Sequence record: LC739533.1
DNA: 64,000 nt
Direction: 5' to 3' (one strand)
DNA from: Escherichia phage phiWec179
In this document: in pieces, positions 19,050-19,286 of the stretch
Numbering within the stretch: the first letter of the stretch is position 1
Layout: every line of letters begins with the position of its first letter
Notes under the pieces: model-generated
The model's input: only the letters and a program-made list of their open reading frames with translations
Told to the model about the DNA's origin: nothing
Databases searched by the model: none
Made by a program: the position numbers and the translations under genes

Positions 19050-19128
19050 GATATTTGGAGGCGGGAATCGGATTCGAACCGATGATCTCCAGCATATGAA
19101 ACTGGCGAGGACGACCAAACTCCTCTAT
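19050..19128 (-). tRNA. tRNA with anticodon CAU (Met or Ile2)
   Basis: Hand-folded: acceptor AGCGGGA/TCCCGCC (1:72 mismatch), anticodon stem CCAGT/GCTGG, loop TTCATAT, T-arm ATCGG-TTCGAAT-CCGAT, encoded CCA. Confidence 0.6.
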
Positions 19129-19134
19129 CCCGCT

Positions 19135-19205
19135 ATTAGGTGTCCCGTGCTGGATTCGAACCAGCATCACAATAAGTTGTGGATCTCTTATCCTGTAAGT
19201 CTAAC
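19135..19205 (-). tRNA. tRNA-like element, non-canonical (no standard anticodon arm found)
   Basis: Perfect T-arm GCTGG-TTCGAAT-CCAGC and near-complementary acceptor strands, but the middle forms a CACAA/TTGTG tetraloop hairpin instead; no encoded CCA. Confidence 0.3.
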
Positions 19206-19206
19206 G

Positions 19207-19280
19207 GGAAACTGGTTGTTTCGACAAGAATCGAACTTGTGTCTCACGATTATCAGTCGTGGGTTCTACCATTGAACTAC
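19207..19280 (-). tRNA. tRNA-Ile (GAU)
   Basis: Acceptor TGTTTCG/CGAAACA, D-arm GTTC-AATGGTA-GAAC, anticodon arm CACGA-CTGATAA-TCGTG, T-arm ACAAG-TTCGATT-CTTGT, encoded ACCA. Confidence 0.75.
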
Positions 19281-19286
19281 GAAACA

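Follow-up and report, generated by a model that had tools for sequence, protein, structure and literature searches.

A candidate gene for a non-decoding tRNA-like RNA in the tRNA array of Escherichia phage phiWec179, with relatives in other virulent phages

Between the transfer RNA (tRNA) genes for Met(CAU) and Ile(GAU) in the genome of Escherichia phage phiWec179 lies a 70-nt tRNA-like element that has no anticodon arm. It was studied in a window of 64,000 nucleotides, the whole stretch of DNA analysed here (sequence record LC739533.1), which is Phapecoctavirus sequence (Stephanstirmvirinae) and is 100% identical to Escherichia phage phiWec181. The element is best read as a genuine gene whose RNA product is tRNA-like but does not decode, a tRNA mimic that is probably maintained and would act via its tRNA shape as a candidate decoy; a probability of roughly 0.55 is given to this reading, on the evidence of sequence comparison. 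Judged by its relatives, it represents in Phapecoctavirus a family that appears to have moved between unrelated virulent phages of Enterobacteriaceae, and the evidence favours a maintained tRNA-derived RNA over mere decay. The RNA of this family, ~70–78 nt long, has kept the features of tRNA shape and lost those of codon reading. No functional or comparative study of the element or its relatives was found in a search of the literature. The family seems never to have been described as such nor assigned a function; T4 rnaC and rnaD and other tRNA mimics are already known.

The window carries ten tRNA genes at 19056-21113, all on the minus strand, which were called by ARAGORN and confirmed by Rfam at 46–72 bits each. 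A gap of 78 nt (19135-19212) separates tRNA-Met(CAU) from tRNA-Ile(GAU); ARAGORN called no tRNA at the element, its ten calls in the window being elsewhere, and the gap carries no annotation in the Phapecoctavirus GenBank records examined. An earlier reading made from the sequence alone (the sequence-only reading) had described a 71-nt element at 19135-19205, with an ideal T-arm, nearly complementary acceptor strands and a CACAA/TTGTG tetraloop hairpin at its centre. All three parts are present (Table 1), the acceptor consisting of 6 bp (U2-U7 with A66-A71) plus a U1·C72 mismatch, followed by a discriminator A. Mismatches at 1-72 are found in some real tRNAs. The location between tRNA-Met and tRNA-Ile also stands. 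The boundaries do not, since the real span is 19141-19210, or 70 nt, and an end at 19205 omits 5 nt of the acceptor 5' strand. Features that had gone unreported are the minus-strand orientation, the D-arm with its GG, the U1·C72 mismatch, the 2-nt variable region and the missing CCA.

Likeness to the canonical tRNA (RF00005) is seen in the 7-position acceptor, U8, A9, G10, the D-loop GG, the GGUUCGAAUCC T-arm and the discriminator. The element differs from it in lacking a 7-nt anticodon loop, in its 2-nt variable region and in an extended, bulged D-stem. The T-arm has the canonical form of 5 bp and a 7-nt UUCRANY loop. The D-loop CAGGA carries a GG equivalent to G18 G19, while the D-stem, compared with the canonical 3–4 bp, is shifted by 2 nt, has two additional outer pairs and a 3-nt bulge, and is skipped by the Rfam model. 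The variable region is 4–5 nt in canonical tRNAs; the AU found here is shorter than the 4 nt taken as the canonical minimum. In place of a canonical anticodon arm, with its 5-bp stem, 7-nt loop, U33 and 3-base anticodon, there is a loop of CUUA. A search of 2.5 kb with the Rfam tRNA model at E<=10 gave no match at the element. When the search was limited to the 98-nt stretch and its filters were relaxed, the score was 21.3 bits (E=0.012), below the gathering score of 29; this alignment takes in the acceptor, U8-A9-G10 and the T-arm but passes over the D and anticodon arms. The sequence-only reading had failed to find a 5-bp stem with a 7-nt anticodon loop and had proposed a check with tRNA finders and covariance models. 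With no call from ARAGORN and no anticodon loop aligned by Rfam, neither gives an anticodon, and a standard cloverleaf overlooked in folding by hand is ruled out.

Homologues were sought in a blastn database of 2.3 Gb. Within Phapecoctavirus the slot is filled in 70 out of 70 records that cover most of the query, at identities of at least 90%. Outside the genus, homologues were found in the E. coli Vequintavirinae A7_1, A73, W70, UPEC06 and LTH01 (82% identity, E=1e-12) and in the siphovirus phiEB49 (78% identity, E=1e-6), where it is annotated as tRNA-Val. Onward searches led to the N4-like Enterobacter phages SonariX and SABI, to the Klebsiella phage 05F01 (Stephanstirmvirinae) and the Klebsiella Mydovirus NDO71 (Vequintavirinae), to N4-like Klebsiella phages of the KP8 type (annotated tRNA-Leu) and to ~20 Gamaleyavirus genomes (annotated tRNA-OTHER or tRNA-Thr). 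Because relatives in other phage families match at E-values of 1e-6 to 1e-12, the element is no chance match; its fold has a z-score of -2.3. The comparison of the locus in related phages that had been suggested earlier thus finds the element kept in Phapecoctavirus, with homologues in other phage families. All family members come from virulent phages of Enterobacteriaceae. In every lineage a genuine tRNA lies 1–9 nt from the family member on the same strand; this neighbour is Ile, Tyr, Arg, Gln or Thr, or the member precedes tRNA-Ile(AAU). By its distribution the family appears to be exchanged between rV5-like myoviruses, N4-like podoviruses and one siphovirus of the same bacterial family. 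Blastn against 5,426 complete E. coli genomes gave no match, and an origin from the host or a prophage was rejected on this result.

The family model R1 scores the members at 74–91 bits, the Gamaleyavirus members at 74–77 bits. In the window it matches the element at 19138-19210 with 86 bits, the window sequence itself being included in its training set, and gives no second match above 44 bits; the window has a single copy of the family. The best ordinary tRNA in ~170 kb of phage tRNA arrays, at ~44 bits, is the adjacent tRNA-Ile, whose copy in the window scores 43.2 bits. A possible second copy in the window at 20103-20180 was dropped, having an R1 score of 16 bits and no Rfam support. The genes annotated 'tRNA-Undet-NNN' or 'tRNA-OTHER' in Gamaleyavirus and N4-like phages are true homologues by these scores and by a blastn link through the SonariX type. 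The Gamaleyavirus genes share with the element the acceptor, D and T arms and the 2–3-nt variable region. They differ from it in having a 6-nt loop, an unbulged 5-bp D-stem (a continuous GGCUU/AAGCC stem with an AGUGGUA loop) and a paired 1-72, in carrying ACCA in some cases, and in being detected by tRNA finders. Pattern scans of IMG/VR and a metagenome collection found no new loop types, adding only Gamaleyavirus- and SonariX-type copies. An ordinary tRNA ancestor of known isotype was also sought, and blastn with four family members gave only T-arm matches to ordinary tRNAs. The D-arm motif UAGGCUUAAUGG occurs in ordinary phage tRNA-Trp and tRNA-Asp genes as well, for which R1 gives 35 bits or less.

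Family members share an architecture of U8 A9 G10, a (G/A)CUUA...GG...UAAG D-arm with two outer pairs and the GGUUCGAAUCC T-arm, which the window copy fits. No linker precedes the central helix, and a variable region of 2–3 nt starts with A. Conservation of structure was assessed in two alignments, one of 19 distinct sequences made with MAFFT (A2) and one of 22 sequences aligned to the covariance model (A4). The structure that was counted has 23 pairs: 7 in the acceptor, 2 outer and 4 inner in the D-arm, with the 3-nt bulge between the two D parts, 5 in the central helix and 5 in the T-arm. Across the 22 sequences 94.9% of cells are paired, and 12 of the 23 pairs have changed on both sides; the MAFFT-only alignment A2 gives the same result. 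None of 500 shuffles reaches the observed values, and structures slid by 1–3 columns are at most 48% paired. Acceptor pairs 2–7 covary across the family, with positions 3-70 being C-G or U-A. At the outer D pair 11-28, 12 sequences have G-C and 10 have A-U. Double changes are present in three of the five pairs of the central helix. The T-stem is paired in 100% of cells and two of its pairs covary. The inner D stem CUUA/UAAG is invariant and so shows no covariation, which speaks neither for nor against it. The acceptor, central helix and T-arm were recovered by RNAalifold when no structure was supplied.

G·U pairs are confined to the tRNA-sense strand, and this fits structure at the level of RNA. 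It bears on the idea that the region is a DNA-level or chance feature with no RNA role, such as a recombination scar or the target of a homing endonuclease. The array is indeed a mosaic: compared with phAPEC8, tRNA-Pro (19293-19369) is 71% and tRNA-Thr (20024-20098) 83% identical, whereas the other tRNAs are all above 94% (95–100%), and insertions in the array differ from genome to genome. However, G·U pairs on one strand only, together with the compensatory changes, are in keeping with a helix in RNA and not with a DNA site, and homology reaches E-values down to 1e-12, so that a DNA-level or chance feature is scarcely credible. Open reading frames (ORFs) that overlap the element, on either strand, overlap genuine tRNAs too.

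The central loop, by contrast, is not conserved: it is 3–9 nt long in the family, with only phiEB49 having 7 (Table 1). Because this loop is free to change in length and sequence, the RNA is predicted to be unable to decode. A tRNA that decodes in an unconventional way, such as one for frameshifting or suppression whose anticodon loop is non-standard, is an alternative that draws support from the phiEB49 copy, called tRNA-Val(AAC) by ARAGORN on its 7-nt loop UUAACAA, and the Gamaleyavirus copies, called 'tRNA-???' with a two-base anticodon; other relatives were uncalled. The SonariX copy, at 33.3 bits, is over the Rfam tRNA threshold (a Phapecoctavirus copy and phiEB49 score 25.2 and 24.6 bits), and tRNAs with 8-nt loops can read four-base codons. 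Neither the 4-nt loop of the window, the 3-nt loop of phiWec188 and ECML-183-2 nor the tetraloop of KP8 and NDO71, however, can present three stacked anticodon bases, and loop length and sequence are unconserved. Lineages differ in the first three pairs of the acceptor and in the discriminator (A, G or C), and an encoded CCA is not conserved even within Gamaleyavirus, where ACCA, AUCA, AUUA and CUCC are all found. A fixed amino-acid identity is therefore unlikely, and a decoding role of any kind is very improbable.

Unmodified A34 anticodons are unusual in bacteria; the genuine tRNA beside the Gamaleyavirus member is tRNA-Ile with anticodon AAU (six loci, for example 782-856 and 783-858 of the stretches examined), and for the phiEB49 member (399-475 of the stretch examined) the reading is Val AAC. 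A tRNA-Cys ACA is present as well in the published Gamaleyavirus annotation (PMC11927229).

The alternative that the element is a decaying tRNA pseudogene, an ancestral tRNA minus its anticodon loop whose remnant survives for want of time, can be addressed through the pattern of change. The anticodon loop alone has been lost in at least six lineages, in unrelated phage families, with the helices, the T-loop and the D-loop GG left intact, which on these sequences is not the pattern of neutral decay. Two comparisons within single loop types are informative. KP8 (N4-like) and NDO71 (Mydovirus) have a common loop between stems of CAUAGCA/UGUUAUG and CGCAGCA/UGUUGCG, respectively, and SonariX (N4-like) and 05F01 (Stephanstirmvirinae) have a common loop between CCCAG/CUGGG and CCCAA/UUGGG. 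As these compensatory changes are seen within single non-standard loop types, they postdate the loss of the canonical loop. Among ten Phapecoctavirus genomes there are 10 variable sites, of which one falls in the 44 paired bases, as a change from A-U to G·U (binomial P=0.0035). Changes falling alike on paired and unpaired sites, with none compensatory, would be expected of a pseudogene and were not found. The retention of the element in all 70 of the Phapecoctavirus records noted above likewise speaks against decay.

Some observations do suit a pseudogene, and several of them weigh against a maintained RNA. ARAGORN reports no anticodon and the Rfam tRNA score is under threshold. The Phapecoctavirus copy is the most reduced member of the family, with the shortest hairpin and no encoded CCA (the tail is ACCU in the window and ACAU in phAPEC8), and 1-72 is mismatched in 10 out of 10 Phapecoctavirus genomes, as U·U in most of the genus and U·C in the window. 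The element is more variable than the flanking tRNAs (in the ten genomes it has 10 variable sites over 78 nt, tRNA-Ile 1 over 74 nt and tRNA-Met 4 over 79 nt); its 93.6% identity to phAPEC8 is near the bottom of the unreplaced tRNAs and above most spacers. Positions universal in tRNA are hit in single genomes, with G18 changed to A in ev052 and an insertion in the T-loop of ESCO25, which may be sequencing errors. The sister genus Justusliebigvirus has tRNA-Met and lacks both tRNA-Ile and the element, showing that the element is dispensable there. The adjacent tRNA-Met has, moreover, been flagged as 'pseudo' by other annotators. Taken with the compensatory changes, these points leave the decaying pseudogene improbable.

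The maintained mimic faces further difficulties of its own. Only ~7 lineages are independent, and part of the covariation could date from an ancestor that was an ordinary tRNA. The variable acceptor end makes a single conserved partner that reads this end not obvious. No common neighbouring protein was found across the lineages: an all-against-all blastp of the ORFs around the element in 11 loci found no shared protein partner, the only similarities being those expected among N4-like phages or among Vequintavirinae. The mechanism proposed below is pure inference. Finally, the computed minimum free energy (MFE) of the window copy is -20.5 kcal/mol, lower than the -17.9 to -19.3 kcal/mol of the cloverleaf. 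In the MFE fold the D-arm 3' side GAUAAG is paired with CUUAUU of the hairpin (19168-19201, minus strand), an alternative that is possible because the tetraloop CUUA repeats the D-stem 5' strand CUUA. The same four bases are found in the central loops of phiEB49 and the SonariX type. For Gamaleyavirus the MFE structure is the full cloverleaf, and for SonariX it consists of the acceptor, the outer D pairs, the central helix and the T-arm. The anticodon arm of tRNA-Ile, CACGA-CUGAUAA-UCGUG, is similar to the hairpin of the element, CACAA-CUUA-UUGUG; the stems of other lineages are unrelated, and nothing is built on the likeness here.

The position of the element in the array is relevant to its expression. 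Its 5' end is 2 nt past the CCA of tRNA-Ile, in agreement with the earlier statement that it is packed within 2 nt of the next tRNA, and its 3' end is 6 nt short of tRNA-Met. That it is transcribed with the array had also been proposed. The array is co-oriented and a scan of it found no terminator-like site between the element and its neighbours, both of which fit the proposal; transcription itself is inferred. The nearest promoter-like site upstream (Table 1) could drive a Gly-Gln-Pro-Ile-element-Met sub-array. Sigma-70-like matches (10–11 of 12 positions) are present on the minus strand at 19722-19751, 20735-20764 and 21325-21353, inside or just upstream of the array. Each of the three precedes one tRNA sub-group, and the array may be transcribed as several units. 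Promoter-like matches in total are not above the number expected from shuffles.

Such a placement would suit a pure processing, or 'punctuation', element, from which the excised RNA would have no activity of its own. The 2-nt spacing from the tRNA-Ile CCA, the U at -1 and the 6 nt before tRNA-Met are in line with this, a genuine tRNA adjoins the member in every lineage, and the acceptor and T-arm, the core of an RNase P substrate, are its most robust parts. tRNA-like folds are used for processing in T4 dimeric tRNA precursors, plant mitochondrial t-elements and MALAT1 mascRNA. However, true tRNAs of the same array are closely spaced with no such element between them (Met-Arg 2 nt, Pro-Ile 6 nt), and the Gamaleyavirus member has no tRNA ahead of it, being the first of the two tRNA-type genes in its unit. 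Furthermore, RNase P needs neither a conserved D-arm sequence nor a helix at the anticodon position, whereas both are conserved here and the helix covaries. A role in processing only is thus considered unlikely. The sequence-only reading had left a choice between a decayed tRNA, a tRNA-derived regulatory RNA and a processing signal; decay is the least supported of these, and a tRNA-derived functional RNA and a processing signal are not separated by the data.

Table 1. Features of the tRNA-like element and its surroundings in the window, and central loops across the family
Feature	Position	Strand	Sequence or description	Evidence
Gap between tRNA-Ile and tRNA-Met, in parts	19135..19212	-	GU / UUCCCGU UA GA CUUA CAGGA UAAG AGA UC CACAA CUUA UUGUG AU GCUGG UUCGAAU CCAGC ACGGGAC A / CCUAAU	
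tRNA-like element	19141..19210	-	70 nt, U1 (19210) to discriminator A (19141)	Sequence; Rfam tRNA model 21.3 bits
Acceptor 5' strand	19204..19210	-	UUCCCGU; U1 mismatched with C72, a pair marked as non-standard in the Rfam alignment	
U8 A9	19202..19203	-	Invariant in 22 of 22 family members	Alignments A2, A4
D-arm	19182..19201	-	Outer pairs G10-C29, A11-U28; inner stem CUUA/UAAG; loop CAGGA; 3' bulge AGA	
Central hairpin	19168..19181	-	CACAA-CUUA-UUGUG; 5-bp stem, 4-nt loop, no anticodon	Sequence; Rfam alignment; RNAalifold
Variable region	19166..19167	-	AU, 2 nt; A invariant in family	Alignments A2, A4
T-arm	19149..19165	-	GCUGG-UUCGAAU-CCAGC, perfect	Base-pair probability ~1.0
Acceptor 3' strand	19142..19148	-	ACGGGAC	Sequence, Rfam alignment, family alignment
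Spacer	19211..19212	-	GU, 2 nt, from CCA of tRNA-Ile to U1 of element; U at -1	Sequence
3' trailer	19135..19140	-	CCUAAU, reaching A1 of tRNA-Met	Sequence
Upstream neighbour tRNA-Ile(GAU)	19213..19286	-		ARAGORN; Rfam 72.2 bits
Downstream neighbour tRNA-Met(CAU)	19056..19134	-	79 nt	ARAGORN; Rfam 50 bits
Promoter-like site	19722..19751	-	TTGACA-18-TATAGT, 11/12 matches; nearest upstream of element	Consensus scan only
Central loop, phiWec188 and ECML-183-2			3 nt	
Central loop, window and phAPEC8			4 nt	
Central loop, A7_1 and UPEC06			5 nt, 6-bp stem	
Central loop, Gamaleyavirus			6 nt, AAACCA	
Central loop, phiEB49			7 nt, UUAACAA	
Central loop, SonariX and 05F01			9 nt	
Central loop, KP8 and NDO71			GGCA tetraloop, 7-bp stem	

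If the element is a maintained tRNA mimic, a path from gene to function may be proposed. It would be co-transcribed with the other genes of the array. Cuts by RNase P, which recognises its substrates by the acceptor/T-arm stack and the elbow, would fall just 5' of U1 of the element and of A1 of tRNA-Met and so free the element with its CCUAAU trailer. The 3' end would then be trimmed by exonucleases, with CCA possibly added by a host enzyme. The mature RNA would work through the acceptor/T-arm stack and elbow of the tRNA shape rather than by codon reading. It might serve as a decoy or harmless pseudo-substrate that occupies a tRNA-binding factor, either a defence enzyme of the host that is directed at tRNA or an enzyme of tRNA processing or modification, while the missing anticodon would keep it out of translation. 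A decoy for a tRNA-binding factor, as an accessory gene of the counter-defence type, is a weakly held conjecture; an accessory gene of this type fits because the family has spread between unrelated phages of one host family. Also tentative is the suggestion that a horizontally mobile family of anticodon-less mimics, matured by the tRNA-processing enzymes of the host, acts as RNA decoys in phages of E. coli, Klebsiella and Enterobacter, binding and blocking a host factor that recognises tRNA by shape.

The nearest precedents are rnaC (species 1) and rnaD (species 2) of phage T4, small stable RNAs at the 3' end of a phage tRNA array whose function is unexplained. In the T4 stretch rnaD (2054-2172) lies 1 nt after tRNA-Arg and is followed, 6 nt on, by rnaC (1909-2047). 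Like the element, rnaC has a perfect T-arm, CCGGGUUCGAAUCCCGG, between complementary acceptor-like strands and has no anticodon arm; the T-arm is flanked by ACGGAACG...CGUUUCGU, making an acceptor/T-arm module at the end of rnaC. The T4 RNAs differ in length, rnaD being 119 nt and rnaC 139 nt compared with 70 nt for the element, and lack the D-arm motif of the family. They are not homologous to it, as R1 matches the T-arm of rnaC only, with 14.8 bits. rnaC matched no Rfam family above threshold.

Other non-decoding tRNA mimics are more distant. In mascRNA and plant mitochondrial t-elements a tRNA-like fold is combined with an anticodon arm that is reduced or non-functional; both are excised by tRNA-processing enzymes and do not decode. 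They are eukaryotic, have no sequence relation to the element, and have as their main role the formation of the end of the flanking transcript; mascRNA (RF01684) gave no match to the element in two Rfam searches at E<=10. YrlA, a bacterial and phage Y-RNA-like RNA, and the tRNA-like domain of transfer-messenger RNA (tmRNA) are non-decoding mimics of the acceptor/T-arm/D-loop elbow. The Ro-binding helix of YrlA, and the mRNA-like domain and G3·U70 of tmRNA, are all absent from the element. In Rfam searches YrlA did not match over the element; its one hit, at 19263-19324 with 21.7 bits (threshold 69), lies on tRNA-Ile and tRNA-Pro.

Phage tRNA genes matter in the arms race against host defences that cleave tRNA, and attention so far has been on tRNAs that decode. 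If the decoy reading is true, the family would be an RNA-only counter-defence gene of ~75 nt, directed against, for example, a tRNA-directed defence nuclease or transferase. If the RNA is functional, it would define a class of phage non-coding RNA that is easily testable, being a small gene in culturable E. coli phages, and it may help to explain T4 rnaC and rnaD. If it is not functional, there would be systematic errors in the tRNA counts and isotype calls of such phage genomes. The element is missed in all Phapecoctavirus records examined and is labelled Undet, OTHER, Thr, Leu or Val elsewhere. In the Gamaleyavirus loci examined it is one of only two tRNA-type genes called by ARAGORN, and published annotation counts three tRNA genes, this one as tRNA-Undet-NNN (PMC11927229). 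One relative has been counted as tRNA-Leu(CAG) (PMC6950046).

Some other features of the array were seen. In the adjacent tRNA-Met(CAU), which is itself odd, A1 and C72 are mismatched, the D-arm is long and the discriminator is U. It is labelled 'tRNA-Pseudo-CAT' in phAPEC8 and Mt1B1_P17 and 'tRNA-fMet' in EmilieFrey, is 97–99% conserved in Justusliebigvirus, and shows a compensatory change from C-G to U-A in its T-stem within Phapecoctavirus.

In phAPEC8 the same unannotated 78-nt gap is present between Ile and Met. An 86-nt tRNA-Asn(GUU) is additional in that genome; it was rejected as an orthologue of the element, since it sits between tRNA-Thr and tRNA-Tyr, where the window (20099-20338) has an annotated hypothetical ORF of 42 aa (20189-20317). 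The differences between the two arrays suggest allele replacement together with insertions and deletions. A tmRNA gene (1302-1660, tag AEDYFDEPLAA), unrelated to the element, lies between tRNA-Leu and tRNA-Met in a 16-tRNA array on the short metagenome contig Ga0310690_10096792.

A second unannotated tRNA-like gene is present in the window at 20641-20726 on the minus strand, 10 nt upstream of tRNA-Ser(GCU). Its best Rfam match is tRNA-Sec, at 37.1 bits (threshold 47), and ARAGORN did not call it in the window or in the phAPEC8 copy, which is 95% identical. With an anticodon loop of CU-UGA-AA and a long extra arm, it looks like an atypical class II tRNA-Ser(UGA). In phiWec188 the same slot is occupied by a 90-nt tRNA-Ser(UGA) that is called by ARAGORN and is only 54% identical.

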